From: Alphaproteobacteria bacterium
GTDB taxonomy: Bacteria > Pseudomonadota > Alphaproteobacteria > CAISOG01
DNA: 61,844 nt
Assembly: GCA_044375625.1 (NCBI GenBank)
Contig: JBILMH010000004.1
Span: 1 to 61,844 of the forward strand
Direction: 5' to 3'
Part shown: positions 2,874 to 54,954 of the stretch, piece after piece
Position numbering within the stretch: the stretch's first letter is position 1
Layout: every line of letters begins with the position of its first letter
Position numbers and translations under genes: made by a program
Notes under the pieces: model-generated
Told to the model about the DNA's origin: nothing
Seen by the model: only the letters and a program-made list of their open reading frames with translations
The model's database searches: none

Positions 2874-3965
2874 ATGCCTAAGCTGTTCATCATCGGTTTT
2901 GGCTACAGCGCTGGCTTTTTGGCTAAGGAACTGGTGCCGCAGGGCTGGCAGGTGGTTGGCACCCGCCGCAGCCCGTCCACCCCAAGTCACCACCTGTTGG
3001 GGTCGGATGATTCGGATGATAGCGTGCCTATTCTGGCCTATCCGGCGGGCAATCAGGCCATACCACCAGCGCTGCTGGATGAATTGCCGACGGCCAGCCA
3101 CCTGTTGATTACGGTGCCGCCCACCGCCGATGGGTGCCCCGTCGCGCATGATTTTGCCAGCCTATCCCTATCCCTGCCCGCCTTGCGCTGGATCGGCTAT
3201 TGCTCCGCCACCAATGTTTATGGCGATCATGGCGGCGATTGGGTTGATGAAGACAGCCCTTGCAAGGCTAAGCCTGGCAGTCGGGGGGGCAATCGCCTGC
3301 TGGCGGAGCAACAGTGGCGGCAGTTGGCGGCCGATAAAGGCTGGCCAGCCCCTATTATCTTTCGCCTGGCGGGCATCTATGGCCCAGGTCGCAGCGCGCT
3401 GGATCGGGTGGCGCGGGCTATTGCCCTGCAGGATGATAGCCAGTTGGTGCAGGATGAGCCGCTGGATAGTCAGTTGGTTTCAGTGCCAGCAGGTGGCCTT
3501 CCCCCCGCATCCGACAATCTGCCGCCGATTGGCTCAGGCGCCATGGTATCGCGGATTCATGTGGTGGATATAGCGCGCCTGATAGCCGCCAGCATGATGC
3601 AGCAATCCTGCAACCCACCCCCGCACACCAGCCAAAAGGCGGCCTATAAAATCTATAATGTGGCCGACAGCCTGCCCGCCCCAACCGATACAGTGCTGGC
3701 CTATGCCGCCAGCCTGTTGGGGCATTCGGTGCCGGCCAGCCTGTTAGGGCATGGGTTGGATAATCGCCCGCCGACAGCCTCCGCCAGTATCGAATCCAAA
3801 AAAGTCGATGGTCAGCGTATCTTGCAAGAGCTGAACGCTACGCTATGCTATCCCAGTTATCGTGAAGGATTGCAGGCTATTTCCGCCCAAAACACTTGTG
3901 CCCAAGCTGTTGCCGACAAACCCACCTTAATCCCAACAATCCCTTTCCCACCCTCTTTCTCTTAA
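2874..3965 (+). CDS. NAD(P)-binding epimerase/dehydratase-like (extended SDR) protein with Pro/Ser-rich inserts
   Basis: Rossmann-like start MPKLFIIGFGYSAGFLAKEL, then NVYGDHGGDWVDEDSP and LAGIYGPGR as in NAD-dependent epimerase-like proteins. Confidence 0.6.
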   Translation: MPKLFIIGFGYSAGFLAKELVPQGWQVVGTRRSPSTPSHHLLGSDDSDDSVPILAYPAGNQAIPPALLDELPTASHLLITVPPTADGCPVAHDFASLSLSLPALRWIGYCSATNVYGDHGGDWVDEDSPCKAKPGSRGGNRLLAEQQWRQLAADKGWPAPIIFRLAGIYGPGRSALDRVARAIALQDDSQLVQDEPLDSQLVSVPAGGLPPASDNLPPIGSGAMVSRIHVVDIARLIAASMMQQSCNPPPHTSQKAAYKIYNVADSLPAPTDTVLAYAASLLGHSVPASLLGHGLDNRPPTASASIESKKVDGQRILQELNATLCYPSYREGLQAISAQNTCAQAVADKPTLIPTIPFPPSFS

Positions 3966-6081: not shown

Positions 6082-8418
6082 ATGAACCAGCGTATCGATA
6101 ACAACCAAAGTCCAGGATCGGCGCCAGAGAGGTGGACTGCTGGTGGTATGTCCGCTGGTCAACTGCCGCCCACGGCCTTAGGTAGTCCCGCAACCATCGA
6201 CAATCAAGGCAACAGCTTATCCAACACTGGGGGTGAACAGACGGGTGGGGCAATGGCGACTGATTCGGAACGTTCCTACACCCTTTCTGCTGGCGATCAC
6301 GATGCGGATTGGTTGGCTGAGGAGGCTGCCCTATTAGCGCAAAATGATGCGCAAGCCATTGAAGCCATCGATGCTCCAGAGATCCGCAATCCGATTGATT
6401 TTGTCATGGCGTCTTCCCGGCCAGTTGTCATCAATCTCAAGAAAAATTTTCGGGTGCTGGCACACCGCCCCTTACCTTTGTTTGATTCACCCTCCGCAAA
6501 AGCTTTTGAAGCATTGCATGTGCGGGATCGGGAACGAAAATATTACGCGTTGGTCAGCGACACACAAATTCCGCCAAGGGTGAATATGGTGTTGGGATTA
6601 ATGAACAGTGGAGTTCATGGATTGGTTTGCCCGAAGGATTGGGGGGTGATTGAATGGATCGGAGGCAAGCTGTGCTATGCGATTATTATGGAACAGCCAG
6701 GCACCAAAAGACTTGTGCGGGATTTGGCCGACACCTTTGTGCCCATCAGTGATAAGATGGTCAGCCGGTCGTTGTTGGCACCAGCCTATACGATGTTGTC
6801 AGAACTGGCATCGCGTGGGTATACCCATCGCGCGCTGCGCCTGACCAACATGTTTCTGAACGATGGCGCGGAAGCCTCTGTTGTTTTTGGAGAATGTTAC
6901 AGCAAGGTGCCAGGCTTTGATCAGCCCGCCGTTTTCGAACCAATCGAAAGCGCCCTGTGTCATCCAATTGCACGGGGTGAGGGGGGGATAAGTGATGATA
7001 TTTATGCCTTAGGGGTGTGTTTAGGAATTCTACTATGCGGCTACAACCCCTTTAATGGGCTGAGCGCGCAACAAATCATCGATCGCAAAATGACCATGGG
7101 CAGCTTTAATGCCTTAATGGGGCACGCCCGCGTTTCCCCGATGATGATGGAACCTCTTAGGGGTATGCTGGCCGATTCCCATAAGAATCGTTGGGGCCTG
7201 CGAGAGCTGGATAACTGGTTGAATGGACGCCCATCCTCACCGCATACCGCTGTATCGCGTCCAAAAGCGGCGCGGGCATTTAAGTTTTTGGGTGAGCCGT
7301 ATTACAGTTTGCCACATTTGGCGATCGCCCTTGGAAGATATTGGACACAAGGAGTTGAAGAAGTTCTTAAAAAGCCCATGGGCATATGGTTAAAAAGAAG
7401 CGCTAATGACGAAGAAAAAGCAGAATCTTTTGAAAAACTTATCGCTCAAGCCCCCATGGAAGATTCTGTTTCGCACGATGTTGTATTAAGTCGTACCTGT
7501 AACATTATGTATCCAGACGGACCAATATTTTTCCGTGGCGTGAACTTTTTGCCAGACGGATTTAAAAACATTTTGTTTCTTTGCCTACAAGACAGCAACT
7601 TTTACCCAATTGTTCATGATGTTATCGAAAGGCGGTTGCTAAGTTATTGGCTTAATCGCCAATCTAGCTTGCCTCTACAATATATCAACACCATGGAAAG
7701 TGTGGCGACATGGAAGAAATTTCTGAACACCCATGGCTTGGGGTTTGGGCTTGAGCGGTGTTTGTATGAAGCCAATCCTGGCATGCTGTGTTTAAGCCCG
7801 CTTGTTTTTCAACACACCGTCACGGATCTTGTAAGCTTATTGCAAACAATGGATGAGCTTGCTGTATCACAGCCCGATTTCTCAAAAGTGATCTTGGATA
7901 CACATTTGGCGGGTTTTATTCTGGCTGGTCTTCGCAATACAGGGCTTGGCTTTGCCAAAATGATTAATTTTGAGGATGATGCCCAAAAGCGGTTGGGATG
8001 GCTGGGGCTGCTGTCGTTGATTCAGCAAAAAAGACGTATGGGCCCATTACCAAATCTGGCCGCCGCAATTTACCCATGGCTCGCTCCAATACTACAGCTT
8101 TTTCACAGTCATAGCCGGCAGAATAGAATTAAGGAAGAGTTAGAAAAAGCCGTAAAAAACGGCTCTTTGACTGGCATGATGGCAATTTTGCAGAACTATG
8201 TGGATATTTTGAATGACAAAAACGGATTTTACAGAGCTCGCTATGAGTACCATGCTCTAAAAATAAAGAATGAAGAAATTAATTTGAGCAATAAAAAAAA
8301 GTTAGAATCAAATATTCCTATTGGTCAGCAAATCGTAGCTTTTGTTGCAGGGGCTACCGCAGCAGTTTTTATGTTGGTAGTTATGTACAGGGAATATGGT
8401 TGGGAATTTTTTCTATAA
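6082..8418 (+). CDS. Protein-kinase-like protein (probably catalytically degenerate) with a long C-terminal extension and C-terminal TM anchor
   Basis: Kinase-like core: YTHRALRLTNMFL in place of HRDLKPxN, then VVFGECYS where DFG is expected, then DDIYALGVCLGILLCGYNPF (subdomain IX-like). C-terminal hydrophobic segment IVAFVAGATAAVFMLVVMY. The ATG at 6082 is preceded by GAGG; the ORF track start at 6052 is a GTG. Confidence 0.65.
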   Translation: MNQRIDNNQSPGSAPERWTAGGMSAGQLPPTALGSPATIDNQGNSLSNTGGEQTGGAMATDSERSYTLSAGDHDADWLAEEAALLAQNDAQAIEAIDAPEIRNPIDFVMASSRPVVINLKKNFRVLAHRPLPLFDSPSAKAFEALHVRDRERKYYALVSDTQIPPRVNMVLGLMNSGVHGLVCPKDWGVIEWIGGKLCYAIIMEQPGTKRLVRDLADTFVPISDKMVSRSLLAPAYTMLSELASRGYTHRALRLTNMFLNDGAEASVVFGECYSKVPGFDQPAVFEPIESALCHPIARGEGGISDDIYALGVCLGILLCGYNPFNGLSAQQIIDRKMTMGSFNALMGHARVSPMMMEPLRGMLADSHKNRWGLRELDNWLNGRPSSPHTAVSRPKAARAFKFLGEPYYSLPHLAIALGRYWTQGVEEVLKKPMGIWLKRSANDEEKAESFEKLIAQAPMEDSVSHDVVLSRTCNIMYPDGPIFFRGVNFLPDGFKNILFLCLQDSNFYPIVHDVIERRLLSYWLNRQSSLPLQYINTMESVATWKKFLNTHGLGFGLERCLYEANPGMLCLSPLVFQHTVTDLVSLLQTMDELAVSQPDFSKVILDTHLAGFILAGLRNTGLGFAKMINFEDDAQKRLGWLGLLSLIQQKRRMGPLPNLAAAIYPWLAPILQLFHSHSRQNRIKEELEKAVKNGSLTGMMAILQNYVDILNDKNGFYRARYEYHALKIKNEEINLSNKKKLESNIPIGQQIVAFVAGATAAVFMLVVMYREYGWEFFL

Positions 8419-8436
8419 ATAGATTAGGATAAAATT

Positions 8437-8949
8437 ATGTCAAAATCTGACAAAGCATCTAAAAATCAAAATTCTGTCAGGAAAAGAAATTCCTATTTAT
8501 GGCTAAGCTGGGCAATGATTTTGTCTTTAGTAATATTTTCGCCGGCTTCCTTACCGCTACTTGGTATCGGCATGTTGCCCAGCATCATCACGGCTATTTT
8601 TGATCGCAAACCACGCAAAACCGCGTTGCAAACCATTGCTTGCGCCAATTTTTGTGGCGTTATAATTTTCGCGGCAGATCTTTGGAAAAATGACAACAAT
8701 TTGGAATATTTGGAAACCATCTTGCAAAATCACCTGAATTGGCTGATTATGTACGGATCAGCGCTGATGGGGCTGATGGCCTATATTGTGATCCCCCTCA
8801 TTATTGCCCTGCTGTTGGATGCCAAAAGCAGCATCGAATCATCCGATCTTAAAAGACAGATGCAGGCGTTGCGCGATGAGTGGGGGCCCGAGGTGGCGGA
8901 GGAGAATCCAGAGGTCAAATTTATGCCCCTAATCGGCGTTGAAAAGTAA
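8437..8949 (+). CDS. Small integral membrane protein (about 4 TM segments), partner of the kinase-like gene
   Basis: Hydrophobic stretches LWLSWAMILSLVIFSPASLPLLGIGMLPSIITAIF, ALQTIACANFCGVIIFAADL and LNWLIMYGSALMGLMAYIVIPLIIALLL. It starts 18 nt after the kinase-like stop and has the same low G+C. Confidence 0.6.
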   Translation: MSKSDKASKNQNSVRKRNSYLWLSWAMILSLVIFSPASLPLLGIGMLPSIITAIFDRKPRKTALQTIACANFCGVIIFAADLWKNDNNLEYLETILQNHLNWLIMYGSALMGLMAYIVIPLIIALLLDAKSSIESSDLKRQMQALRDEWGPEVAEENPEVKFMPLIGVEK

Positions 8950-14962: not shown

Positions 14963-15137
14963 TTCTGATGGCAGCCATCCCGCTTATAAACAGGGCGGGC
15001 AGGCCAACGGGGAGGGTGAGGGGTGGAGGAGGGGTTAATAGGGTGTATTTAGCCATACAACTTGTTGATTTGTCTATCGGTGCGTGACGCAGAAGAAAAC
15101 AGGTTGCATTTCATTTTAGAATCTAGCCCTGTGGCGT

Positions 15138-15178
15138 TACCAAAAGCGTTTTGATGCAAAGGCTTTGCCAGATCCTGT
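15138..15178 (+). repeat. 41-bp direct repeat, copy 1 (taccaaaagcgttttgatgcaaaggctttgccagatcctgt)
   Basis: 39/41 identical to 16229-16269. The two copies bracket the AT-rich zinc-ribbon/DUF4145-like gene. Confidence 0.9.
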
Positions 15179-15265
15179 GAAGATAGAAGATTACTTATTT
15201 TAGAGGTGGATATGTAGCACAGGATGATGATGTATGTCAGATATTCAACTTAAGATAATTAGCGC

Positions 15266-16168
15266 TTATTCCGCTTGTTTTTTCTTGGACTTAATCTTCA
15301 GCAAATTTGAAACAGCAGTGTTTAGTTGCGCATCATCTTTCATGGCTTGAGCCATTTTTTCCACTAATTCTGTTAGAACAACACGAATGTCTCTTGCTAA
15401 AAACAAGCATTCATCATCTGTTTTTGCATGTAATCCTTCGCTCAAGGCACTATGAAGAAGTACTAGTGGATTATGTCCGCTAATACGTAATGCTTGAGGA
15501 ATAGCGTGCTTAATTTTTTCTATTGCCTTACTAAATTGAGTTTCTTGTTTTGCAGATTTTAGATCTTCGATTAGTTTTTGATCAGCATTCAGCGTTTCTG
15601 AAACTCTAATTATTTGGTCAAAAATGTTATTTCGTCTTTCTTCGATTATTCGCCTGTAATAGCCAAAAGCACCTATACCAAGTCCTTGTGTTTCGCATCG
15701 CCTTCCTTTGAAGAAATAATCTTTTTCCGATCCAAGTAAACTAACTAATCTTGCGGGGGTTGGCGATCCAAAAGCAGGTCTTTCACCATATTTTACGATG
15801 GACGCTAACGCTGTCTGCTTATCAAGGGTGGCCTCAATAGAAAATGTTTTTCTAACACTTTCACAGTTCTTGCATATATATATTAAAAATTCATGCGAAT
15901 TACCTGATGATCCCAAGTAAATATGATCGTCTTTTGTAGCAAAGAACCGTGGGCCATTACATTGGCCGTCGCTACAATGCAAATTGATTTCAGGTAGGCT
16001 GATTCCTTGAGATGCATTTGATGCATTATAACGATAACAAGATTCAGTCTCTACATGAACGATTTTATCGGGGGGCGTTTCTTCTAGAAATGATTTCATA
16101 GTGATGGGAGTTGCCTCATGAGTAGGCTTTTCTACACTTTTTGCAGACAGCAAATTCTCGTTGTTCAT
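15266..16168 (-). CDS. Hypothetical protein: N-terminal Cys-rich (zinc-ribbon-like) region plus C-terminal DUF4145-like helical domain
   Basis: CSDGQCNGPRFF...CKNCESVRKTF gives two CxxC-type pairs. FFKGRRCETQGLGIGAFGYYRRIIEERR resembles the DUF4145 core. The ATG at 16168 is preceded by GAGGG, while the longer ORF to 16234 runs into the repeat. 20/60 G+C in 15541-15600. Confidence 0.6.
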   Translation of the reverse strand: MNNENLLSAKSVEKPTHEATPITMKSFLEETPPDKIVHVETESCYRYNASNASQGISLPEINLHCSDGQCNGPRFFATKDDHIYLGSSGNSHEFLIYICKNCESVRKTFSIEATLDKQTALASIVKYGERPAFGSPTPARLVSLLGSEKDYFFKGRRCETQGLGIGAFGYYRRIIEERRNNIFDQIIRVSETLNADQKLIEDLKSAKQETQFSKAIEKIKHAIPQALRISGHNPLVLLHSALSEGLHAKTDDECLFLARDIRVVLTELVEKMAQAMKDDAQLNTAVSNLLKIKSKKKQAE

Positions 16169-16228
16169 TTTACCCTCACAGGATTTGAACCTAAAAACAC
16201 TAGGTGAAACATACACGGCCTTTCGGGC

Positions 16229-16269
16229 TACCAAAAGCGTTTTGATGCAAAGGCTTTGCCGGAACCTGT
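16229..16269 (+). repeat. 41-bp direct repeat, copy 2
   Basis: taccaaaagcgttttgatgcaaaggctttgccggaacctgt. It abuts the stop codon of the GIY-YIG gene (16270). Confidence 0.9.
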
Positions 16270-16521
16270 TTAGGGCGCCCTAAAACGCAGTTTTTGAAAT
16301 CTTCGACCCGCTTGTGTTTTCAAATAAGCTTCAAAATCCTGCGCTGTCTTTTTATCACTAAACGCGAAATAGGCATGAAGTTTCCATGGTTGATACTTTG
16401 TGGTGTGCCCAGAATTCCCTTCGGCATTATGTTCTATCAGCCTACGTTTTAAATCCTCGGTAAAACCTGTGTAGAATTTTTCAGGGTGGCTGGCACTTTC
16501 AAGGATGTAGACGTACCACAT
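16270..16521 (-). CDS. GIY-YIG nuclease family protein (small stand-alone URI domain)
   Basis: WYVYILESASHPEKFYTGFTEDLKRRLIEHN is the GIY...YxG...R..EH pattern of GIY-YIG domains. 83 aa. Confidence 0.8.
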   Translation of the reverse strand: MWYVYILESASHPEKFYTGFTEDLKRRLIEHNAEGNSGHTTKYQPWKLHAYFAFSDKKTAQDFEAYLKTQAGRRFQKLRFRAP

Positions 16522-16587
16522 CTGTATTCCTTATCTATTCCGTCACAATCCAATCCTCGCTTTGCTCGGGTTTGTGACGAGAACCTC

Positions 16588-16625: not shown

Positions 16626-16702
16626 TGGTCGGAGTGGCGGGATTCGAACCCACGACCCCTAGCACCCCATGCTAGTGCGCTACCAGACTGCGCTACACTC
16701 CG
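16626..16702 (-). tRNA. tRNA-Pro (anticodon GGG), CCA encoded
   Basis: The reverse complement folds by hand as CGGAGTG TA GCGC AGTCTGGTA GCGC A CTAGC ATGGGGT GCTAG GGGTC GTGGG TTCGAAT CCCGC CACTCCG A CCA. The anticodon loop AT-GGG-GT carries G37. Confidence 0.9.
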
Positions 16703-17898: not shown

Positions 17899-18052
17899 GT
17901 CTTCCACCCTATCCCACCCGTTTGATGGTGGCGTGGCAGCTTTGCAGTTTTTCGAATTTGGATTGAACATTTTCTAAGCAGGGTCGGTGAGAACGCACCC
18001 ATAGCCAACAAATGAATTGAAAACCGTTACGTCATACTTTATACTTTATTTT

Positions 18053-19033
18053 ATGAATTACGACAAGCTTACACAAAAGAAACAGCAGCTGGATGGCTTC
18101 AGGCCATTGCCCCCCGAACTCGCCCGCAATCTGGACGATTGGTTCAAGGTTGAGCTTACCTACACCAGCAACGCTATTGAGGGGAACACCCTGACCCGCC
18201 GTGAAACAGCGGTGGTGATTGAAAAAGGGTTGACCGTTGGGGGCAAAAGTCTCAGGGAGCATTTGGAGGCCACCAACCACGCGCATGCGCTGGATTTTGT
18301 GCGATCCCTTATCGAAAAGAAACCGTCACAATTGACGGCCAAGGATGTGCTGGGAATTCACAACCTTATCTTAAAGGGGTTGGATAACGAAAACGCTGGT
18401 CATTATCGCAGCGTGCCGGTTCGCATTTCGGGGGCAGCGGTGGTTTTGCCCAACCCGCGCAAAGTGCCAGACCTGATGGACGATTTTTTGCGCTGGCTTA
18501 CAGCCGAACACGATTTGCATCCCGTCGCCTTTGCGGGGGAAGCGCATTACCGTCTGGTAAGCATTCACCCATTTGTGGACGGCAACGGACGCACGGCGCG
18601 ATTGCTGATGAACCTGCTGCTCATGATGGTTGGCTATCCGCCCGCCATTATCCGCAAGCGTGACCGACTGGCTTATATCGCTTCACTTGAAAAGGCGCAG
18701 CTTGGTGGATCGAAAGAACCTTATGAGAAAATCATCGCCAAGGCGACGGAACGATCGCTTGATATTTACCTTACAGCGGCGCGTGGAGAGTCTGCCGCAG
18801 GGGACGATGGGGATAGCGACGACTTGCTGAAAATCGGCGAACTGGCAAAAGCCGCAGGGGAAACCGTGCCGACCATCCGCTACTGGACAAAAGAAGGGTT
18901 GCTGGAGGTGGCGGAGGTCACCGGGTCAGGCTATCAGCTTTACGCCGCCGACATGGTGAACCGTTGCCAGCAAATTAAAAAGCTGAAGGGCGATCGATTC
19001 ACCCTTCAAGAAATTAAGCAGCGGCTTTCGTAA
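18053..19033 (+). CDS. Fic family protein with N-terminal inhibitory motif and C-terminal MerR-type HTH
   Basis: Fic motif HPFVDGNGRTARLLMN. Upstream SNAIEG matches (S/T)xxxE(G/N). The C-terminal LLKIGELAKAAGETVPTIRYWTKEGLL is MerR-like. ATG 18053 (MNYDKL) is preferred over the upstream alternative start at 18017. Confidence 0.85.
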   Translation: MNYDKLTQKKQQLDGFRPLPPELARNLDDWFKVELTYTSNAIEGNTLTRRETAVVIEKGLTVGGKSLREHLEATNHAHALDFVRSLIEKKPSQLTAKDVLGIHNLILKGLDNENAGHYRSVPVRISGAAVVLPNPRKVPDLMDDFLRWLTAEHDLHPVAFAGEAHYRLVSIHPFVDGNGRTARLLMNLLLMMVGYPPAIIRKRDRLAYIASLEKAQLGGSKEPYEKIIAKATERSLDIYLTAARGESAAGDDGDSDDLLKIGELAKAAGETVPTIRYWTKEGLLEVAEVTGSGYQLYAADMVNRCQQIKKLKGDRFTLQEIKQRLS

Positions 19034-19089
19034 GAAACTTGGTTTAAGTTGCCGCGAACTTGGATATTGCAACACTTTTATCGAGGCAA

Positions 19090-20334
19090 TCAGCCCCAGA
19101 GGGTTGAGATGGGAACAGCAAAAAGCCTGTCACCAAACGGTACGATGTCATGTCCACTGTAAAGCACCACACCGCCGACAAAATCATCTTTTGCTATTTC
19201 TTGCAGCACGCGCATCCCTTTGAAGTCACCACCATCCACTCGATCTGCGGTCTTGACCTCGATGCCCGCCATCGTGCCATCAGGACGCTCCAGCACAAAA
19301 TCCACCTCTTTGTTGTCACTCGTGCGGAAGTGCAGCAACTTTGCACGCACATTGCTGAATGACAGCAGCTTGGTGAGTTCGGTTGCCACAAAGTTTTCCA
19401 GCACATGGCCATAAAGTTCTGGCTTACGCTCACGCATGTCTTCAAGGCGTAAATCAAGCAGATGGCAGAGCAACAACGTATCCACCAAAAATCCTTTAGG
19501 AGATTTGACAAGGCGTTTGCCGATGTTGCGATACCACGGTTCCACATCAAACTGCAGGAACATGGCTTGCAATATGCCGCGATAGGCTTTGCTGGTGACA
19601 GGATTTAACCCTAAGTCCCGGGCAATCTCGGCATCATTCATCAGCTTGCCAGCACGCGATGCCAGCACGCGCAGCAGGTTGGGCAGCATGGCAATCTTTT
19701 CAATTTCGGAAAGCAAGCGCACATCGCGCTGTAAAATGGTGGTAAGATAACTGTCAAACCATTCGGTGCGCTCCACCACGCCTGCACCAGAAATTTCTGG
19801 AAAGGTTGCGCGTGCAATCACCGCATCCAACGACGCTTTCTTGGCAGAAGACTCAAAATCCATCGCAAACAACCGTTGCAGAAAATCGCCTTTCCCACCC
19901 AAGATTTCTGAAGCACTGAATGGGTAGAGCGTTTTGATACTCATACGCCCCACCAACGGGTCAGAGAGTTTAGGCAACGCCATGATGTTGGCAGATCCCG
20001 TAAGCAGGAATCGTCCGTTACTGTGTTTTTTGTCCTTTAACCTGATTTCATCTACCACCAGTTTCAAGGCACGAAATATCTCTGGCACGATTTGCACTTC
20101 GTCGATTATCATCGCGCCTTTACGGCTTTTAAGAAAACTCTCAGGCGAACTCGCCGCCGCCGCCATTTGCGTTGCATTATCAAAGCTGACATAGCCAGCC
20201 GGAAAGTCTTTTTTGTTTAAGTGCTGCACCAGCGTGCTTTTGCCAGCCTGGCGTGGGCCGTTTAAAAAGACCACAGGATGGTTCTTAAGCGCAAACAGCA
20301 GGTTATCTGTTAATTTACGAGGCGTGGTTTTCAT
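19090..20334 (-). CDS. AAA-type ATPase with DUF4143-like C-terminal domain
   Basis: Walker A GPRQAGKSTL and Walker B-like MIIDEVQ. The C-terminal half (VDFVLERPDGTMAGIEVK) resembles the restriction-endonuclease-like DUF4143 region common to this family. Confidence 0.8.
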   Translation of the reverse strand: MKTTPRKLTDNLLFALKNHPVVFLNGPRQAGKSTLVQHLNKKDFPAGYVSFDNATQMAAAASSPESFLKSRKGAMIIDEVQIVPEIFRALKLVVDEIRLKDKKHSNGRFLLTGSANIMALPKLSDPLVGRMSIKTLYPFSASEILGGKGDFLQRLFAMDFESSAKKASLDAVIARATFPEISGAGVVERTEWFDSYLTTILQRDVRLLSEIEKIAMLPNLLRVLASRAGKLMNDAEIARDLGLNPVTSKAYRGILQAMFLQFDVEPWYRNIGKRLVKSPKGFLVDTLLLCHLLDLRLEDMRERKPELYGHVLENFVATELTKLLSFSNVRAKLLHFRTSDNKEVDFVLERPDGTMAGIEVKTADRVDGGDFKGMRVLQEIAKDDFVGGVVLYSGHDIVPFGDRLFAVPISTLWG

Positions 20335-20479
20335 GGCAGCTCCCTATTTGCAATTATAAAGATAGCATTTATAAAAACAAAAGGCAAAGTTTGGTTTTGC
20401 AATATCAGCCTAAGCTGGAACGCGACAATATCGGGGGGCGTTGGGCTATCGGTCAAGGGCTGAATTCATTCGGACGCCT

Positions 20480-20498
20480 TAACATCAGGAGCTGGAGG
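20480..20498 (+). repeat. Exact 19-bp direct repeat, copy 1 (taacatcaggagctggagg)
   Basis: Identical to 21924-21942. Together they bracket the 2-gene AT-rich cassette. Confidence 0.9.
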
Positions 20499-20568
20499 TG
20501 TGCGTTACGCCAGCCTCTTGAAGTTTCTCTCGCAGAAGCCTTGAAGTAGCCAGAAGAAGTTTGATATT

Positions 20569-21246
20569 TCACATCACCACTTTAGCTATATCGCTCAGGC
20601 CACCTAAAATGAGTTTCTTTGGCACTCCTGGTGCGGCGTTAATCTCCAGCGTGTCAGTAAGTGTGTGATTGACATTATTTACGGCAAACGCATCAGCATC
20701 TTTAGCAAAAGCGATCCTATGTTCTTTCTCATCTGAGAAACGTTTGTTTTTGGACATTATAATTTTGTCAGGACAAACGTATCTTACCCCAGGCTCTTCA
20801 TCAAAGTCGTAGTATTCAACATTATCAGATAAAATTTTTCTATTTTTGATATTGTGCGCGGATTTTCTTAAATGTCGTGAAATACGGTTACTAAATTCTT
20901 GTACATCTGATATTTCAATGCAGCCGTCAGCACCAAACTTTTGGAACAAGGTTTTGCTGAGCTCAAGGCTTGTGCAAAAAACAAATACACGGTCTGGTCG
21001 CCTTACTCGTGATATTAGCCCGCGATGGCCTTTAAGTTTTTGGTTATTTGCTGAGATTGTAATTTCTAAACCATTCGACGGCATGTAAACATTAGCATCT
21101 TCAGTAATATCAATTCTTGCCAAATCTTCGCATGATAGAAAATAGGACAGCGTGTTGAAGAAAACTTCTCCATTATGCAAAAATTTTTCCAAATGTGACT
21201 TGTCACAAAAATACTTAAAAACAGAATATTTTCTATGATTCAGCAT
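20569..21246 (-). CDS. Hypothetical protein, DUF2971-like by motif order
   Basis: VFKYFCDKSHLEKFLHNGEVFFNTLSYF, VFVFCTSLELSKTLFQKFGADGCIEI and KNKRFSDEKEHRIAF follow the order of conserved blocks I associate with DUF2971. Its start overlaps the upstream stop (TAATG). Low G+C. Confidence 0.55.
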   Translation of the reverse strand: MLNHRKYSVFKYFCDKSHLEKFLHNGEVFFNTLSYFLSCEDLARIDITEDANVYMPSNGLEITISANNQKLKGHRGLISRVRRPDRVFVFCTSLELSKTLFQKFGADGCIEISDVQEFSNRISRHLRKSAHNIKNRKILSDNVEYYDFDEEPGVRYVCPDKIIMSKNKRFSDEKEHRIAFAKDADAFAVNNVNHTLTDTLEINAAPGVPKKLILGGLSDIAKVVM

Positions 21247-21728
21247 TATTCGCTGCGCTCCTTATCGGCAGCTTCCCAATATATATCTTCTATTGCCCTT
21301 GAGGAAATTAATCCGCAATTCATAAAATCTAGGAAATTGCCACAATCCCTCAAAGTTTGAATGCTGTACCGTGTTGATACGGCAAATGCTTTAGGATCAG
21401 ATGCGGCATGACTAGAGATGGCATTGTCATCGTCATAGAATGATTGAAACTCATTCCACTCATCGGCTGTTTTTAGCGGAAGCTTTCTCAATTTCTTTTT
21501 CTGCTCACCAACTAATTGTTTATGCATCATATATGAGCTTAATAAATGAGCAGGAATGTTTTTAATACGTTCAAGCCAAACTACTAGGGGGAGGCCTATA
21601 GCCAAGGCCAAAAATGCGACAAGAAAATTCGCGTCAGCGGTTTCTGAAATTATCCATGCTAGCAAAGCACTAGTAATTAGTGAGAATACCCACCTTAAAG
21701 TTTTGAATTTTAGCTGTACGAATTCCAT
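21246..21728 (-). CDS. Hypothetical membrane protein (2 N-terminal TM helices plus a soluble C-terminal domain)
   Basis: WVFSLITSALLAWIISE and FLVAFLALAIGLPLVVWL are hydrophobic helices. 21/60 G+C in 21301-21360. First gene of the 2-gene cassette. Confidence 0.6.
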   Translation of the reverse strand: MEFVQLKFKTLRWVFSLITSALLAWIISETADANFLVAFLALAIGLPLVVWLERIKNIPAHLLSSYMMHKQLVGEQKKKLRKLPLKTADEWNEFQSFYDDDNAISSHAASDPKAFAVSTRYSIQTLRDCGNFLDFMNCGLISSRAIEDIYWEAADKERSE

Positions 21729-21923
21729 AATGTTTACCCAATATGTTTTCCTAAAATTTTCTCTGGAGATAGCTGTGCACTTGTTTTCTCACGAGTGCAC
21801 GGCCTCGGTAGAGAGAACGCCATGCAAAAGAATTAAGATACGCACAAAAAGACCAGAATTTCTATGCAGGCTACTCATATTTCAGCAGGATTACAAGAAA
21901 TGATTAACCTGCTGATTACTTTC

Positions 21924-21942
21924 TAACATCAGGAGCTGGAGG
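21924..21942 (+). repeat. Exact 19-bp direct repeat, copy 2, overlapping the last ~6 nt of tRNA-Ser
   Basis: taacatcaggagctggagg. Positions 21937-21942 belong to the tRNA-Ser 3' end. Confidence 0.9.
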
Positions 21943-22028
21943 AGACGGAGGGATTCGAACCCTCGATACGGTATAACCCGTATAACGGTTTAGCAAACCG
22001 TCGCCTTCAGCCGCTCGGCCACGTCTCC
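21937..22028 (-). tRNA. tRNA-Ser (anticodon GCU), long variable arm
   Basis: The reverse complement is GGAGACG TG GCCGAGCGGCTGAAGGCG ACGGT TTGCTAA ACCGT TATACGGGTTATACCGTATC GAGGG TTCGAAT CCCTC CGTCTCC T CCA. Confidence 0.9.
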
Positions 22029-23268: not shown

Positions 23269-23913
23269 CTAATCCGATTCCCTGCGCAGCCGCCTTAGCA
23301 ATGGCGCGCTCCAGCGGGGGGTCATCCGCAACAACACCTCATCACGGCGCCAAAAATGATGCATCAGCGCCGCCCCAACATGCAACGCCAGCAACAGCCA
23401 AAGGGCATTGGCCAATAGCTCATGCAGCTCATAAAACTGCTTGGCCAGCGCCTTCTGCTCCTCCACCCCTCCGCCATCCAATCCAGGCAGGCTTGGCCAG
23501 GGTATAAGCCCGTACAGCAACATCGGCTTGCCGCCCGAAAAGGCTGAGGACATCGCCCAGCCCGATAAAGGCATGGCAATCATCAACAGGTAAAACCCCG
23601 CATGGGTCAGGCGCGCCGCCATTTTTTCCCACAGCTGGCTACCCTGCGGCAAAGGGGGTGGCCGATGCGCCAGCCGCCATCCCAGCCGCAACAAACTAAG
23701 CAGCAAAATGGTAATGCCAATCGATTTGTGCAGCGGGTACAAAATCGCCTTCCAGGCGGGATCCTGCAAATCATCCATAACAATTCCCATCAGCAACATG
23801 CCAACAATCGCCGCCGCCATAACCCAGTGCAGCAGGATGGCAACGCTGTTGTAGCGTGCTGAGGGTTCATCATGGGCAGCGGCATCCAGTTGGATCTTAA
23901 TCAGGTCGGTCAT
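23269..23913 (-). CDS. Cytochrome b561 family protein
   Basis: YNSVAILLHWVMAAAIVGML and four predicted TM helices with conserved His (LHKSIG, THAGFY, HVGAALMHHF), typical of CybB-like proteins. Confidence 0.8.
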   Translation of the reverse strand: MTDLIKIQLDAAAHDEPSARYNSVAILLHWVMAAAIVGMLLMGIVMDDLQDPAWKAILYPLHKSIGITILLLSLLRLGWRLAHRPPPLPQGSQLWEKMAARLTHAGFYLLMIAMPLSGWAMSSAFSGGKPMLLYGLIPWPSLPGLDGGGVEEQKALAKQFYELHELLANALWLLLALHVGAALMHHFWRRDEVLLRMTPRWSAPLLRRLRRESD

Positions 23914-24095
23914 GGCAGGCCTTTTAGGGTACGAACAGGGGGCTCTATCCCCTTTTTAAAAAGGAGAGGAAGATAAAGTGGAAGCGGCATCATTCCAAAC
24001 CCTTTGTAGCCGATGCTAGGACAAAAAGCCACCACCACCTGTGTTGACAAAAATGATGACAATACCCGATGATAATTTTTTTTAAGGAGAGTCTT

Positions 24096-24962
24096 ATGCA
24101 ACCAATCCAGGATCGACCTGCACCATTTTTTAATGGATTTCTAGCTATTGGATTCGTGGTATTCTTGCTTTTAATCTTTTATGTCAGCTTTCCAGTTTAC
24201 AATCAAATTAAACAGAATGCACCTGTTACAATTTTGTTGCTACCAATTATCGTTGCGGTAATAGCAATAATTTCAACAGGTTTTACCATTATTCAACCCA
24301 ACGAATCCAAAGTGTTAACATTTTTTGGAAAATATGTTGGTACGCTTAAGCAAAGTGGATTTCTGTTTACTTTTCCGCTTTCGGATAAGAAAAGCGTGCC
24401 ACTTAAACTTGTTAACTTTGTTACCGATCATCTTAAGGTCAATGATCGAAACGGCAATCCCATTGAAATCGGCGCCGTTGTTGTTTGGCGCGTCATGGAT
24501 GCCGCTCAATCCTCCCTAAATATTGATGATTACAAGACTTTTGTTGCCAATCAAAGCGACATTGCTGTTCGCGCTTTGGCCGCACATTATCCCTATGATT
24601 CCGAGAAAGAAGTTTCCCTAAGGGGTAATCTTGATGAAATAGCCTCAAAACTTAAAGATGTTTTACAAGAAAAATTGGCGATAGCGGGCATTGTTGTTGA
24701 AGAAACCAAGCTTAGCCATCTTGCCTATGCTTCAGAAGTCGCTGCTGCTATGCTCAAACGACAACAGGCTGTGGCAATTTTCGATGCACGTCAATATATG
24801 GTCGAAAATGCTTTGGCGATTATTGATGATGTAATGAAGCATTTTGAAAAAAATAATAATGTTAAATTCTCAGATGATAAAAAAGCAGAACTTATCAACA
24901 GCTTATTGATCGTCATGACATCTGACAAAGAAGCTAATCCAGTTTTGTCAATAGGAAAATAG
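24096..24962 (+). CDS. SPFH/band-7 domain protein
   Basis: N-terminal TM region, then IIQPNESKVLTFFGKYVGTLKQSGFLFTFPL and a C-terminal helical region (AAMLKRQQAVAI). AAGGAGA RBS 5 nt before the ATG at 24096. 20/60 G+C in 24181-24240. Confidence 0.8.
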   Translation: MQPIQDRPAPFFNGFLAIGFVVFLLLIFYVSFPVYNQIKQNAPVTILLLPIIVAVIAIISTGFTIIQPNESKVLTFFGKYVGTLKQSGFLFTFPLSDKKSVPLKLVNFVTDHLKVNDRNGNPIEIGAVVVWRVMDAAQSSLNIDDYKTFVANQSDIAVRALAAHYPYDSEKEVSLRGNLDEIASKLKDVLQEKLAIAGIVVEETKLSHLAYASEVAAAMLKRQQAVAIFDARQYMVENALAIIDDVMKHFEKNNNVKFSDDKKAELINSLLIVMTSDKEANPVLSIGK

Positions 24963-24966
24963 AGAA

Positions 24967-25386
24967 ATGAATGAAATATTAAATGACAGCGCAAAAATTA
25001 CTTTCTTCGTAATGCTATTCATCATATATTCTGAAATAGCCACGGCGATAATATTTTTGATTAAGGCAAAAAACTTTGTTTATAATGCCAAAACTGTAAA
25101 AGCAGAGGTTATTAAAATCACTAAATTTAGAAAAGAATCGCAGGTTCTTATTCAATTTAAAGATCCGCTGGGAAAGCTACATGAGAAAACAATAGGGGTT
25201 CCTATTTGTACGCTTGAAGAAAAAGACATTATAGAAATTCTTCATGACAACAAATCGGATAAGGTTAAATACAAATCATTTCTTTCTTTATGGACAATTC
25301 CTTGCTTGTTTATCTTTTCCGCATTTACAACATCACTGATTTTAATATTTTTAACTTATGCGGGCATTGCAAATTCACCTTTTTAG
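24967..25386 (+). CDS. Small membrane protein, TM / beta-rich domain / TM topology (DUF3592-like)
   Basis: ITFFVMLFIIYSEIATAIIFLI, a ~70-aa soluble segment, then LWTIPCLFIFSAFTTSLILIFLTYAG. It starts 5 nt after the SPFH stop. Confidence 0.55.
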   Translation: MNEILNDSAKITFFVMLFIIYSEIATAIIFLIKAKNFVYNAKTVKAEVIKITKFRKESQVLIQFKDPLGKLHEKTIGVPICTLEEKDIIEILHDNKSDKVKYKSFLSLWTIPCLFIFSAFTTSLILIFLTYAGIANSPF

Positions 25387-25478
25387 CTGCCCTTATCGCA
25401 TCCTTTTACCACAACTGGCCGCCAAATACCACCCGCAGCCTGCAGCCTGAAGACATGTAAGGCTAAAGGGGAAATGCT

Positions 25479-27797
25479 CTAACCCTGCATATAGGTGGGC
25501 AGCCAGGCTTCATGAGCGGTTTGCAGGGCGGCGCGGGTAATAGATTGGCCATCGGGCAGCGTCAATTTGCCCGCCGTCTTGCCAGATGTATCCCCAGCCG
25601 CAGCACCAGCCGCCACCGCCGTAGTCTGACCCAGCAGCAGGGCTGGCACACCCGCCTCTGCCGCCGCCGCCAAGACCTGATCGGGATGCAGGGTGGCAAT
25701 CAGATAGCGTGCCTGATCCTCCCCAAACCAGAAACCCGCATCGCTGGCAGGCAAATCGGGGTTCAGCTGGATACCGAGAGGCTGATCCGTGCCCACATCC
25801 CTGCCCGCCCCTGTCAGCCACATTTCGGCCAGCGCCACCAACAGCCCCCCATCGCTGATGTCATGACAGGCGGCCAGCAATTGTTGCTGATTCAAGGCCA
25901 ACACCAATTCCCCGACCCGCCGTTCGGTGGCGAAATCGACGGGGGGCGGCGCCCCAGCCTCCTGCCCCTCAACAGTCATCAGATATTGACTACGCCCCAA
26001 CCAGCCCTCGCCGCCGCCGCTGCCCAATTGTACCAGGCTTAGCCCCGATTGGGTCAGCGCCATGCTTAACCGTTGGCTGTAGTCGGCCAGCAACCCAACC
26101 CCGCCAATCACGGGGGTTGGGTAAATCCCCACCCCATCGGTGTCGTTGTAGAGCGAAACATTGCCTGACACGACGGGAAAGTCCAGGGCGCGGGCGGCAT
26201 CGCCAATCCCCGTCACCGCCGCCTTTAGCTGCGCCATGATTTCGGGCTTCTCCGGATTGCCGAAGTTCAGGTTGTTGGTCAGGGCTAACGGCTTAGCACC
26301 ACTGGCCACCAGGTTGCGCCAGCTTTCCACCACCGCCTGCGCGCCGCCGATATAGGGGTCGGCCGCACCGTAAAAGGGGTTGCAGTCGGTGGCCATTGCC
26401 AAAGCCTTATGCGTGCCCGCCACCCGCACCACCGCCGCATCGCTGGCCGTTGCCGCCCCCGAATCGGACAGGCTGTTGACCCCGACATGGCGATCATATT
26501 GCTGCCAAATCCATCGCTTGCTGGCCAAATTGGGGCTGGCCAGCAGTTGTTGCAGCGCGGGCAGGATCGCCACAGGCTTGGTCAGCGTCACGGGCTGCTG
26601 GCTGGGCGATGCCAGCGCCGCCACAGGGCGATCATATTGCGGCGCCTCATCGACCAGGGCGGCAATCGGAATCACCCCCGCCGATTCGCCATGCCATTGC
26701 ATTTCCAACACGGGTTCGGCGATCAGGCTGCCTACCACCACCGCGTCCAGATCCCATTTGGCAAAAATCGCCTGCGCCTTAGCCGTCGCCTCAGGTTTCA
26801 GCACCATCAGCATCCGTTCCTGGCTTTCCGACAGCATAATCTCATAGGGCTGCAAATCGGCCTCCCGCAGCGGCACCGCGCTGAGATCCAGGCGGATACC
26901 GATGCCACCCTTGCTGGCCATTTCGCAGGCGCTGCTGGTCAACCCCGCCGCCCCCATATCCTGAATCGCGATAATCGCATCCTCATTCATCAGCTCCAAA
27001 CAGGCCTCGATTAACAGCTTTTCCTTAAAGGGATCGCCGACCTGCACGGTTGGCCGACTGGCCTGCTCACTGGCGCTAAAAGCCGCGCTGGCCATGGTGG
27101 CGCCATGCACGCCATCCCGCCCCGTCTTAGCACCCACATAGACCACGGGGTTGCCGATGCCTGCCGCCTTAGCATAGAAAATCTTATCCGCCTGGGCTAT
27201 GCCCACCGCCATCGCGTTGACCAGGTTGTTGCCGTTGTAGCAGGCGTGAAACTGGCACTCCCCCCCCACCGTCGGCACGCCAACGCAATTGCCATAGCCG
27301 CCAATGCCCGCCACCACGCCCGCCACCAGCGAACGGGTTTTGGCATGGCTGGGATCGCCAAAGCGCAGGGCGTTTAGCAGCGCGATTGGCCGCGCCCCCA
27401 TGGTGAAGACATCGCGCAAAATGCCGCCCACGCCTGTCGCCGATCCCTGATACGGCTCAATAAAGCTGGGGTGGTTGTGACTTTCGATCTTAAACACCGC
27501 CGCCAGGCCATCGCCAATATCGATGACGCCCGCGTTTTCGCCAGGCCCCTGAATCACCCAGGGCGCGCTGGTGGGCAGGGTTTTCAGATACTTCTTGCTG
27601 GATTTATAACTGCAATGCTCACTCCACAGCGCGCCAAACACCGCCAATTCGGTAAAATTGGGCGCCCGACCCAACAATTCCAAAATTCGTTCATACTCAT
27701 CAACCTTCAGCCCCAGTCCGCGCAACACTTGCGGGCTATAGGTTGGCGCCTCATCGGTTGTTGCAATCGCGGCTTGGGTGGCAACTGGCTTGCTCAT
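25479..27797 (-). CDS. purL: Phosphoribosylformylglycinamidine synthase subunit PurL
   Basis: [44 protein letters not shown] and [12 protein letters not shown] are hallmark segments. Confidence 0.97.
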
Positions 27798-50561: not shown

Positions 50562-50960
50562 CTATTTTTTTACAAAATGCGCTTTTTCTGCAAGTTCTGT
50601 CGCTACCACCCTCATTAGTGATTTTTCAGATGGCACAGCTTTGATATTCGCATGTTTTGGATGCCCAACACCGTCTACCAGCACTTGCAAGAAACCTCCC
50701 ATGCCGTTAGCAATTTTTTGAACCTCAGCTACCTTCAGATCCGCACGAGCCAACACCTCTTTATCCGTTCTAATTCTAGAACCAATATCCCAGATACTTT
50801 CCTCAGAACACTCTGTTACTAAAAATACAGAAATCTCATTAGGATATTTAGAGTTAGGCATAAAGACATTGTGCTTAATGGGATTGCTCCTAAGCCAATC
50901 CCGTTCAAAAATGTAGCGGGCAATTTTGTCAGCATCAGAAGCGGGGTAATCTAGAGTCAA
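50562..50960 (-). CDS. Hypothetical protein, third gene of the AT-rich three-gene operon
   Basis: 132-aa ORF. Its TTG start overlaps the upstream TGA (TTGA). No motif recognised. Very low G+C. Confidence 0.6.
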   Translation of the reverse strand: MTLDYPASDADKIARYIFERDWLRSNPIKHNVFMPNSKYPNEISVFLVTECSEESIWDIGSRIRTDKEVLARADLKVAEVQKIANGMGGFLQVLVDGVGHPKHANIKAVPSEKSLMRVVATELAEKAHFVKK

Positions 50961-51520
50961 CTGGCAAAACCCTCTATTAAATTCAGCAAATTCAATACTT
51001 CTTCAGGCAATTTGTTGCCGAACTGAACATCGCCAAATAAGCGACCATGTGGGCTAACACCCCCCCATTCTATCCGATCATTTTCATTAACACCAATCAC
51101 GACATGATAGCCACGTTTTTTCCAGACCATTGACAGAGCGCCATCTGGTTCAGCACAAATTTCTGGGCAAGAAATATGTTCTGGCAAAAAACTCAAAAAC
51201 AAAAGAGTTTTTTCAAAAAAAATCTCTTTAACTGGTTCGGCATCATAGCCATCCCAATCTCGAGCAGAATAATTTTCTCTTATAAAATTCAATTCACCAA
51301 ATATATCTCTTTTCCTAAATGAAATTGATTGATCTTTTTCTTTATCAATTTTCTCTAAAGATTTTGATATGAACTTAGATGATGGGTTGTATACATCACG
51401 CACATCATGGCCTGTACGTGACAATCTATAACGACCTCTATTAATAGAAAAATTTGTCTGAGCAGAAAAATTTCTGCTAAATTCCATTGGTATTTCATAT
51501 GTTGCACAATTTACTCTCAT
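50957..51520 (-). CDS. Hypothetical protein with DWDGYDAEP motif, second gene of the operon
   Basis: 187-aa ORF. Its ATG overlaps the upstream TGA (ATGA). The C-terminal half has ARDWDGYDAEPV...AEPDGALSMVW, a pattern I have seen in uncharacterised small bacterial and phage proteins. Confidence 0.65.
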   Translation of the reverse strand: MRVNCATYEIPMEFSRNFSAQTNFSINRGRYRLSRTGHDVRDVYNPSSKFISKSLEKIDKEKDQSISFRKRDIFGELNFIRENYSARDWDGYDAEPVKEIFFEKTLLFLSFLPEHISCPEICAEPDGALSMVWKKRGYHVVIGVNENDRIEWGGVSPHGRLFGDVQFGNKLPEEVLNLLNLIEGFAS

Positions 51521-52284
51521 GAAAATAAATCCTGCGCATTTGGTAAATTAGAGAAAAATATATGGTTTTTAAAAAGACGCAATCTTTCTAAGGTGTCATA
51601 TATATTGCTATAATTTTCATATTCGAAATAATCTTGGTCGTTTTTTACGTCAATATCCATAATAATTTTTAATTTTTCTTCTTCTGGCTTTATTGTCAAT
51701 AAAACAACCGCTTGCGCTGTGTATTTTAATGAATTTAAAACGTACCTTGAAAAAATTTCTGAAACACCTATTTCAGAACTATCATAATCTGATCTGCCAC
51801 GAAAAAACGATCCCATTAGAAGATTTTTATGCCAATCTTCCTTATTCAAATAAAAACTGTTTATATATCTTAATGATAAATCGTTTATTTTTGATACAAT
51901 AATATTATTAGAAAAAATTTCCCAATATTTCTTATACTCATCAGAAAAATTTTCCCAGGAAATATAAGGTTTCAACTTGTTAAAAATGAGTTTATTTTTG
52001 CTGCAATGCAAATAATTCTGAATATCATCAGAAAACAAAAAACCTATCTTTTCGTTTGTGCTATTATGTGAAAAATTTGTTCCATCTTCACCAAAGTTAA
52101 TGGCGGAATGAAATTGTCGCCATTCTTTTTTGTTTGGATAAAAACCTTCGAAAGCCTTAAAAATTTTTTCAAGGCTTTCTGTTGATACATCTTTATTATG
52201 CTCAACGCCTACACTGATAACCGCCTCCTCAATCGGAGGAGATTTAAGCTTCGGATACTTTCTTCTTAACGCAAGTTCGGACAT
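51517..52284 (-). CDS. Hypothetical protein, TIGR04255-like N-terminus, first gene of the operon
   Basis: 255-aa ORF. YPKLKSPPIEEAVISVGV resembles the start of the uncharacterised TIGR04255 family (recognised from memory, not searched). 16/60 G+C in 51541-51600. Confidence 0.65.
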   Translation of the reverse strand: MSELALRRKYPKLKSPPIEEAVISVGVEHNKDVSTESLEKIFKAFEGFYPNKKEWRQFHSAINFGEDGTNFSHNSTNEKIGFLFSDDIQNYLHCSKNKLIFNKLKPYISWENFSDEYKKYWEIFSNNIIVSKINDLSLRYINSFYLNKEDWHKNLLMGSFFRGRSDYDSSEIGVSEIFSRYVLNSLKYTAQAVVLLTIKPEEEKLKIIMDIDVKNDQDYFEYENYSNIYDTLERLRLFKNHIFFSNLPNAQDLFS

Positions 52285-52336
52285 GATAACTCCCTATGCC
52301 TACAATAGCACAAAGAAAATGAAATTCCATGGGAAT

Positions 52337-52360
52337 CGCCAGCCAGGCGGCCTAGGCCGC
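52337..52360 (+). repeat. 24-bp direct repeat, right copy (cgccagccaggcggcctaggccgc)
   Basis: A relic-like copy of the holB 3' end including TAG. It lies 52 nt beyond the start codon of the cassette's first gene. Confidence 0.8.
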
Positions 52361-52431
52361 TGCACACACCCCCTAAGCCAACCGCAAAACTGCTTGCAAA
52401 ATGACTGGGCAAAGGCAATCGCTTTGGCCTA

Positions 52432-52581
52432 TATAGTTGTTCCAATTTAGAAATATACGGCCTGCGAAAATATTACGAGGTCGAGAAACGGAGCGGGAGT
52501 GTACACGGACGTACATGAGCACCGTATCGCAGAGATCGTAATATTTGCAGCACTGTAGATTTCTAAAGGGGAATGACTATA
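52432..52581 (-). mobile_element. MITE-like element, copy B (inverted relative to copy A)
   Basis: The reverse complement aligns end to end with 14480-14628, with the same terminal inverted repeats and TA flanks. It lies 48 nt upstream of the preferred metG start. Confidence 0.85.
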
Positions 52582-52629
52582 GTTATCGACAACCTTAATG
52601 ATTTTATAGCCCAACAAAAGTTCACAACC

Positions 52630-54940: not shown

Positions 54941-54954
54941 GCCAGATCCCCGCG

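Follow-up and report, generated by a model that had tools for sequence, protein, structure and literature searches.

A two-gene insert at the tRNA-Ser(GCT) gene of a freshwater alphaproteobacterium as a probable integrase-less, CIME-like mini-island in a variable defence slot

In phage morons, a leader with a promoter and a conserved 3' tail surround AT-rich genes. Islets linked to transfer RNA (tRNA) genes, cis-mobilizable elements (CIMEs) and chromosomal slots with variable defence cargo are also kinds of DNA that are already known. CIMEs possess no integration or transfer genes and retain both attL and attR (PMC6323972). Proteins of the DUF2971 family, proposed to be ADP-ribosyltransferase (ART)-like, have a conserved tyrosine and an ExE motif (PMC12522546); one DUF2971 protein constitutes Aristaios, a single-gene defence system of lactococci (PMC11381338). 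The locus considered here lies in a stretch of 61,844 nucleotides (contig JBILMH010000004.1, hereafter the window) from an uncultured freshwater alphaproteobacterium. Positions 20499-21923 of the window, enclosed by two copies of a 19-bp repeat at the 3' end of a tRNA-Ser(GCT) gene, carry two genes, A and B. With a probability of about 0.55, this insert is an integrase-less, att-flanked, CIME-like mosaic mini-island situated in a defence hotspot. Its unusual traits are the tiny recombinase-less unit, the recurrent association with tRNA-Ser, the ultra-conserved noncoding ends and two unannotated cargo families.

The exact 19-mer TAACATCAGGAGCTGGAGG is present in the window in two copies (Table 1). 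No third copy was found there at up to two mismatches. About 0.009 direct 19-mer pairs are expected by chance in the whole window, and none appeared in 100 shuffles. Exact matching and ARAGORN thus agree with the preliminary description of this DNA, made from the letters alone, both in the placement of the copies and in the judgement that such a pair is not expected by chance. The copy at the tRNA gene consists of the last 6 nt of tRNA-Ser (CCTCCA, the encoded CCA included) and 13 nt of the native downstream flank. Related loci and contigs, designated by L-numbers or as P0004, were retrieved for comparison with the window; the sister strains among them were found via contigs whose 280-aa protein across the tRNA from the insert is exactly that of the window, and their flanks are ~98% identical. 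In the sister strain L023, which has a restriction-modification (R-M) cassette and lacks A-B, the same 19-mer occupies the same place in a single copy. The tRNA-side copy is therefore native, and the distal copy is a duplicate made with the insertion. The right copy is confined to the contigs bearing A-B (the window, L001-L004 and L021) and is absent from L022-L026 and L028; L027, an A-B-type contig that ends inside the cassette just within the gene after A, includes the tRNA-side copy only. The concern that the 19-mer could be a mere conserved flank of the tRNA in relatives therefore applies to the tRNA-side copy alone. Homology of the cassette with L005 and L018 begins at window position 21917, 6 nt inside the left repeat, and homology with L018, L020 and L033 extends to ~20493-20499, up against the right repeat. 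The single copy in L023 and the homology that stops beside each repeat support the earlier proposal of an insertion at the tRNA-Ser end with attL/attR-like scars.

Between the repeats, no recombinase was found in the list of open reading frames (ORFs) or with Pfam, NCBIfam and PADLOC, as had been noted previously for the cargo, and the credible ORFs are A and B only. A transposon was rejected, there being neither terminal inverted repeats nor a transposase. Integration would have been performed by a tyrosine-type integrase supplied in trans, with the crossover at the CCA end of tRNA-Ser; alternatively, the insert might be the remnant of a larger element that lost its integrase. The empty-site junction would be expected to read tRNA-Ser...CCTCCAGCTCCTGATGTTA|AGGCGTCCGAATGAATTC, and a circular form would have the junction ...GGCGTAACGCACA-CCTCCAGCTCCTGATGTTA-GAAAGTAATCAGCAGG.

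Like CIMEs and integrase-less tRNA islets, the insert is bounded by intact direct repeats in which the tRNA 3' end is included, lacks genes for integration or transfer, has a foreign composition and occupies a slot used by other elements through tandem accretion or replacement. It differs from them in being only 1.4 kb long with two genes, in a repeat of just 6 nt of tRNA and 13 nt of flank, in having relatives elsewhere that show no clear repeats, and in the ultra-conserved leader and tail modules, which are no described feature of CIMEs; furthermore, no related integrative and conjugative element, integrative and mobilizable element or cognate integrase was found. Phage morons and integron cassettes resemble the insert as compact AT-rich units with their own 5' expression signal, a conserved 3' element and swappable cargo. 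Unlike a phage moron, the insert lies outside any prophage, and unlike an integron cassette it is accompanied by no intI and has no inverted repeats at its ends, be they terminal or imperfect and attC-like. No intrinsic terminator is predicted for it.

The slot between tRNA-Ser and the PDC-S01 ATPase gene differs in cargo among the strains of one organism. Besides A-B, its alleles include a type II R-M system with a RE_TdeIII-like endonuclease and a MerR-fused C5 methyltransferase (L023), a second type II system with RE_Eco47II and a methyltransferase, and one 145-aa gene. In L022, L024, L025 and L026, the sequence diverges directly after the tRNA CCA, where a larger element begins in a way that differs from the 19-mer junction. 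The left junction of L023 runs from the single 19-mer through GAAA and the last ~27 nt of the conserved leader, with its Shine-Dalgarno sequence, into the restriction endonuclease gene; the right boundary corresponds to window position 20458, 21 nt outside the right repeat. The PDC-S01 ATPase forms the conserved right-hand border of the slot beside A-B and R-M alleles alike. Defence islands and hotspots are similar in having alternative cargo in each strain, type II R-M systems included, and in the bordering PDC-S01 and Fic genes; the A-B cargo differs from theirs in matching no known or candidate defence model. The R-M systems that occupy the slot in other strains, and the PDC-S01 and Fic genes next to it, make it likely that the cargo serves in defence against, or exclusion of, phages or other mobile genetic elements. 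It is the position of the insert that points to this role, as it does to the mode of mobility.

Four modules that travel separately make up the mosaic of the insert: a leader of ~165 nt, A, B and a tail of ~55-70 nt. The leader opens with a hairpin of a 7-bp stem (CAGCAGG...CCTGCTG) and terminates in CAGAGAAAAnTTTnAGG. Its ultra-conserved core (21757-21808) contains a palindrome with 13-nt arms around GTGCAC (21772-21803) and can be written as CCGAGGCyGTGCAC-N14-GTGCACAGCTATCTCCAGAGAAAAGTTTnAGG, with 88-98% identity over 52-60 nt. As a whole, the leader is 79-92% homologous to the DNA that precedes A in L005 and, in L018 and L020, a lipoprotein gene with B. The tail core (20508-20561) shows 95-98% identity over 53 nt in the window, L018/L019, L020 and L033, its positions elsewhere being 5072-5124 in L018, 6528-6571 in L020 and 1588-1639 in L033. 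In the window no nucleotide separates the tail from the right repeat. All the loci have, behind the tail, a C-rich stretch that closes with CCA, and from there on their sequences differ. Between these lineages the synonymous sites of A and B differ by 47-90%, those of B being saturated. Compared with this synonymous difference, the 88-98% identity puts leader and tail under far stronger constraint than neutral sites. Only the tRNA matched an Rfam family, leader and tail matching none; the fold of the leader has a z-score of -1.9, and the consensus hairpin of the tail is weak, with one covarying pair. The tail also has an internal direct repeat, ACTTCA(A)GGCT ... ACTTCAAGAGGCT. It might function as a protein-binding site, as a small RNA or as a recombination site.

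Cassettes with A or B lie directly downstream of, and codirectional with, tRNA-Ser in five independent neighbourhoods with three anticodons: GCT in the window and in L009/L016, CGA in L005, GGA in L018 and in L034. These cassettes have 33-41% G+C and their hosts 46-57%. No recombinase was found in the related leader/A/B cassettes, which come from alphaproteobacterial metagenome-assembled genomes (MAGs). In L018, a 12-nt fragment of the 3' arm of tRNA-Ser(GGA), ATCTCATCCCTT at 3933-3944, follows the tRNA at a distance of 126 nt and precedes the leader by 49 nt; an earlier integration at this tRNA gene may have left it as a scar.

Table 1. Positions of the insert, its modules and its neighbours in the window
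Feature	Position	Strand	Basis
Gene A, 160 aa, two N-terminal transmembrane helices	21246..21728	-	ORF
Gene B, 225 aa, soluble alpha/beta, phrog_13198 member	20569..21246	-	ORF
Conserved leader, promoter/5' untranslated region platform	21753..21917	-	blastn against related loci
Conserved tail of the B module	20499..20568	-	3' of B, abuts the right repeat
Left 19-bp direct repeat, attL-like	21924..21942	.	Exact match; tRNA 3' end + 13 nt flank
Right 19-bp direct repeat, attR-like	20480..20498	.	Exact match; duplicate of tRNA end + flank
tRNA-Ser(GCT), integration target	21937..22028	-	ARAGORN; Rfam tRNA, 60 bits
AAA_14/DUF4143 ATPase, PADLOC PDC-S01 candidate	19090..20334	-	Pfam; PADLOC E=4e-138
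Fic-MerR fusion, SoFic / PDC-S04-like	18017..19033	+	Pfam Fic 5e-24, MerR_1 7e-15; PADLOC SoFic 2e-28
tRNA-Thr(TGT), far border of the non-core segment	17823..17898	+	ARAGORN; GC profile

Genes A and B are codirectional with tRNA-Ser and share one base, in the TAATG within GAATAATGCTG; this overlap was correctly given in the preliminary description, as was the AT-richness of both genes. The G+C content is 21/60 at 21301-21360, 39% in A as a whole and 37% in B, against 55% in the window and ~60% in the surrounding core genes. Together A and B would form one operon, with transcription either starting in the leader or reading through from the tRNA gene; the stretch from tRNA-Ser to A has no predicted terminator. 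The comparison of A with L005 gives a ratio of nonsynonymous to synonymous substitution rates (dN/dS) of ~0.11 and that of B with L033 one of ~0.16, and this purifying selection identifies both as real genes. The two transmembrane (TM) helices described earlier for A were recovered at about residues 11-28 and 35-52. The rest of the protein is an all-helical C-terminal domain predicted to be cytoplasmic, so that A would reside in the inner membrane. The AlphaFold2 (AF2) model of A is all-helical, with a predicted local distance difference test score (pLDDT) of 70. Neither Pfam, PADLOC, NCBIfam nor PHROG gave a match for A. Its homologues form 17 clusters of 47-99% identity, all of them from alphaproteobacterial MAGs or metagenomes.

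Protein B, which would act in the cytoplasm, matches phrog_13198 with E=2.9e-13 over residues 8-181; all 52 of its diverse relatives do the same, the best with 6e-21. By exhaustive search with a hidden Markov model, 745 representative clusters belong to the family at E<=1e-3 and 278 do so at the stricter E<=1e-10; with few exceptions the proteins have ~220 aa, and the representatives have no Pfam domain and no informative name. Residues G26, D46, K166, E175 and R177 are invariant in the 52 relatives, with the consensus Q/E-x-E-Y-R at 173-177, while E173-x-E175 is invariant among the close relatives. Y12 is near-invariant in the 52 relatives, Y35 is invariant in 16 close relatives, and no histidine is conserved. 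The AF2 model of B has a pLDDT of 74 and a predicted template modelling score of 0.73, with one of the five models confident. The structural comparison called for earlier was made with Foldseek: the models of A and B found no match in the PDB, and that of B, with the same one confident model of five, had none in the PDB or BFVD at E<0.7, ART folds included. The B profile gave chance matches only against PDB sequences, none of them to an ART.

The label of a DUF2971-like protein, attached to B at first, did not hold in profile search: B has no match to PF11185 at E<=0.1, its 52 relatives have none at E<=0.01, and the family consensus reaches E=2.9 against a 22-bit cutoff. No housekeeping family was matched by B either. 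With DUF2971, Aristaios and AbiGi-DarT-like proteins B has in common its size and a stand-alone, single-gene distribution on mobile DNA. At motif level, it resembles DUF2971 and the ART-fold abortive infection (Abi) proteins in an N-terminal LYKY, in FxFCxS...CVEI and in Q/E-x-E-Y-R (E173-x-E175) at the start of a strand. It differs from them in the lack of a significant PF11185 match, of the motif I histidine and of a Foldseek match to ART structures. Judged from the residues alone, the correspondence with ART motifs may serve as a motif-level lead. Kiwa (KwaA with the DUF4868 protein KwaB) is similar to A-B in gene order and coupling, a small TM protein being followed by a soluble one. It differs in that KwaB matches one of the 52 relatives of B (E=0.0044 over 40 residues), KwaA has four TM helices against two in A and finds no match in A, and A and B do not co-occur elsewhere. 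Kiwa, Cmr4 and CARF were therefore rejected as identities of B, the PADLOC matches being weak and each limited to one family member. Fliodhais, a lipoprotein with a 255-aa protein, was ruled out, Fliodhais-ii being a monotopic membrane protein. One B relative matches PDC-S31 (1.2e-5, N-terminal 70 residues), from which no interpretation was drawn.

Adjacency of A and B, as traced by tblastn across all the retrieved loci, is found only in contigs of the organism of the window (L001-L004 and L021; L027 ends early), where several metagenomes contain the identical pair. The gene after A in a Holosporales MAG (L005/L006) encodes an unrelated 159-aa protein with one TM helix. The longer A (202 aa) of the Alphaproteobacteria MAG WBA_2_308 (L009 and others) overlaps the gene of an unrelated 156-aa protein with one TM helix, and in L013 the next gene encodes an unrelated 254-aa protein, likewise with one TM helix. 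These partners stand at 0-5 nt from A and are mutually unrelated; in L017, A is alone. The gene preceding B encodes a lipoprotein of ~80 aa in L018 and L020, a 275-aa protein with a C-terminal TM helix in L033, which has a Phd/PIN toxin-antitoxin pair next door, and a 143-aa protein in the P0004 contig, while B is alone in L034 and L035. No Pfam or PADLOC match was found for the partner proteins of A and B. Among remote relatives of B, that of Nitrosomonas ureae stands alone within a prophage-like region, and another is located behind a housekeeping gene. On conjugative plasmids of Rhizobium, such as Rhizobium beringeri pRlX1 (L031, 4543-7769), the stand-alone B-family gene comes directly after that of a 460-aa Schlafen/AlbA_2 ATP-binding protein and has a DUF4238 gene and a RelB antitoxin gene next to it, which again is a defence-like neighbourhood. 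Thus A and B are probably two independent single-gene modules joined in this organism and not an obligate sensor-effector pair.

Several observations weigh against an att-flanked mini-island. The long perfect repeat is found in the window only, L005 and L009 having no direct repeat of at least 10 nt, and the tRNA fragment of L018 lies upstream of the leader and not at the far end. The window and the related loci yielded no cognate integrase. Among the contigs encoding the exact 280-aa flanking protein, no empty allele (the 19-mer followed by AGGCGTCCGAATG) was detected, and the genome and metagenome pattern scans were targeted at A homologues; the search for an unoccupied site in relatives, proposed at the outset, thus yielded L023, where a single 19-mer is followed by an R-M cassette. 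Flanking repeats are missing from other AT-rich islets of the genome, the SPFH islet among them. Neither A nor B matches a PADLOC model at a meaningful level, so that position is what the defence role is drawn from. The junctions of L023 fit recombinational cassette replacement within shared sequence as well as they fit site-specific integration. The main rival, less probable by a clear measure, accordingly assumes no site-specific element: cargo behind a platform of tRNA and leader would be swapped by homologous or illegitimate recombination, and the repeat would be a by-product, for example of an imported donor fragment that brought its own copy of the tRNA end. This explanation stays alive because of the structure of the R-M allele, with its left 19-mer, GAAA and end of the leader, and because of the missing repeats in L005 and L009. 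The sharing of one leader by cassettes with different first genes (A or the lipoprotein gene), the Fic 3'-end fragment duplicated in the L023 cassette as a sign of recombinational patchwork, and the islets without repeats also speak for it. However, an exact 19-bp duplicate with 13 nt of host-specific flank at both ends is the classic product of a site-specific crossover, and the presence of three anticodons of tRNA-Ser in unrelated neighbourhoods argues for targeting.

Two further alternatives concern the cargo. The genes might not be devoted to defence and might instead be moron-like accessory genes acting in membrane or stress physiology, in superinfection exclusion left over from a prophage, or as a toxin-antitoxin-like addiction module that stabilises the islet. 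Such a role is unlikely, although the leader and tail around AT-rich genes have the layout of a moron, the B family has PHROG members with one relative in a prophage-like region with RusA and SLT, small lipoproteins occur among the B partners as in some exclusion systems, a Phd/PIN pair adjoins the L033 locus, and defence models were not matched. Against it, a pattern scan of IMG/VR gave no match for A, B or the leader core, tblastn found no B in GenBank phages, and the allelic R-M systems with the PDC-S01 and Fic neighbours point to defence. The preliminary description had proposed a membrane-effector Abi pair, in which B, as a cytoplasmic sensor or enzyme, would activate the membrane effector A, both being delivered as an obligate unit. 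The one-base overlap implies co-translation, purifying selection acts on both genes, several metagenomes of one organism have the identical pair, the slot is a defence hotspot, and a partner gene stands tightly behind A in L005, L009 and L013, only L017 being without one. However, a lack of linkage in other genomes had been named beforehand as a refuting observation, and A is next to B in no other independent context that was retrieved, neither in the four A lineages (L005, L009, L013 and L017) nor in the six B lineages (P0004, L018, L020, L033, L034 and L035). The distant B relatives that stand alone and the lack of relationship among the partners of A add to this. An obligate pair is therefore the least supported reading, and a rather doubtful one.

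Beyond the CIME-like mini-island, a wider and decidedly speculative proposal can be formulated. In freshwater Alphaproteobacteria of an (endo)symbiont-like kind, the leader and tail would be the functional ends of an undescribed class of recombinase-less cassettes, for which tRNA-Ser CCA ends would be the specific site of insertion and exchange. Defence genes would then have an expression platform similar to that of integrons but anchored at a tRNA, with A and B as two new stand-alone anti-phage genes and B as a very divergent ExE-type (ART-like) enzyme. If the mini-island is real, one slot in a single uncultured species alternates R-M systems with two uncharacterised proteins, which amounts to a natural experiment; allelic evidence of such a kind has led to new defence genes. 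The B family (~750 clusters at 50% identity, with no Pfam model, structure or annotation) would then be a concrete target for tests. Noncoding ends better conserved than the genes, together with the recurrence at tRNA-Ser, would suggest an undescribed mechanism of mobilisation or regulation.

The interval from tRNA-Thr to tRNA-Ser, roughly 4 kb, is non-core DNA by its GC profile. Its part with the Fic-MerR and PDC-S01 genes (18017-20334) has ~50% G+C, is conserved beside both the A-B and the R-M alleles and may be an older accreted island. In L023, a 59-aa ORF (3189-3368) duplicates the 3' end of the Fic gene (the MerR part, window 18908-19033) with 94% identity, which suggests that the R-M cassette was imported from a locus beside another Fic-MerR gene. 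Within the Fic gene, positions 18901-18917 match the tRNA end over 17 nt with two mismatches, just where the piece duplicated in L023 begins. This copy was considered as a third att site and judged to be probably due to chance, though the duplicated Fic 3' fragment comes from nearby. The larger element found in the slot (L022/L024, 1-5560) encodes 369/308-aa and 404-aa proteins without an assigned family, a LexA/S24-like repressor, DUF2924, a 246-aa serine recombinase of the Resolvase family and an HNH_2 protein; its far end is beyond the retrieved DNA.

The window contains seven AT-rich islets of 1.1-2 kb (7251-8850, 15051-16550, 20201-22000, 23901-25500, 50651-52600, 54951-56150 and 58051-59200), with 36-42% G+C against ~58%. 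Each carries one to three genes, mostly without a family match, and small islets of foreign DNA seem to characterise this genome in general. The islet at 23901-25500 consists of an SPFH/Band-7 gene (24069-24962) and the gene of a 139-aa membrane protein (24967-25386). It is present in L021, L022 and L024 and absent in L023, L025, L027 and L028; its junctions have no direct repeat, and the insertion alters the N-terminus of the adjacent cytochrome b561-like gene product (214 against 209 aa). The islet at 15266-16521 adjoins tRNA-Pro(GGG) (16626-16702) and is thus a second tRNA-adjacent one; it encodes a 300-322-aa protein without a family match, with a Cys-rich N-terminal part, and an 83-aa protein that is a stand-alone GIY-YIG nuclease domain. 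The most AT-rich islet is that at 50562-52284, with 29-41% G+C and three codirectional minus-strand genes for proteins of 99, 187 and 255 aa, two of which overlap.

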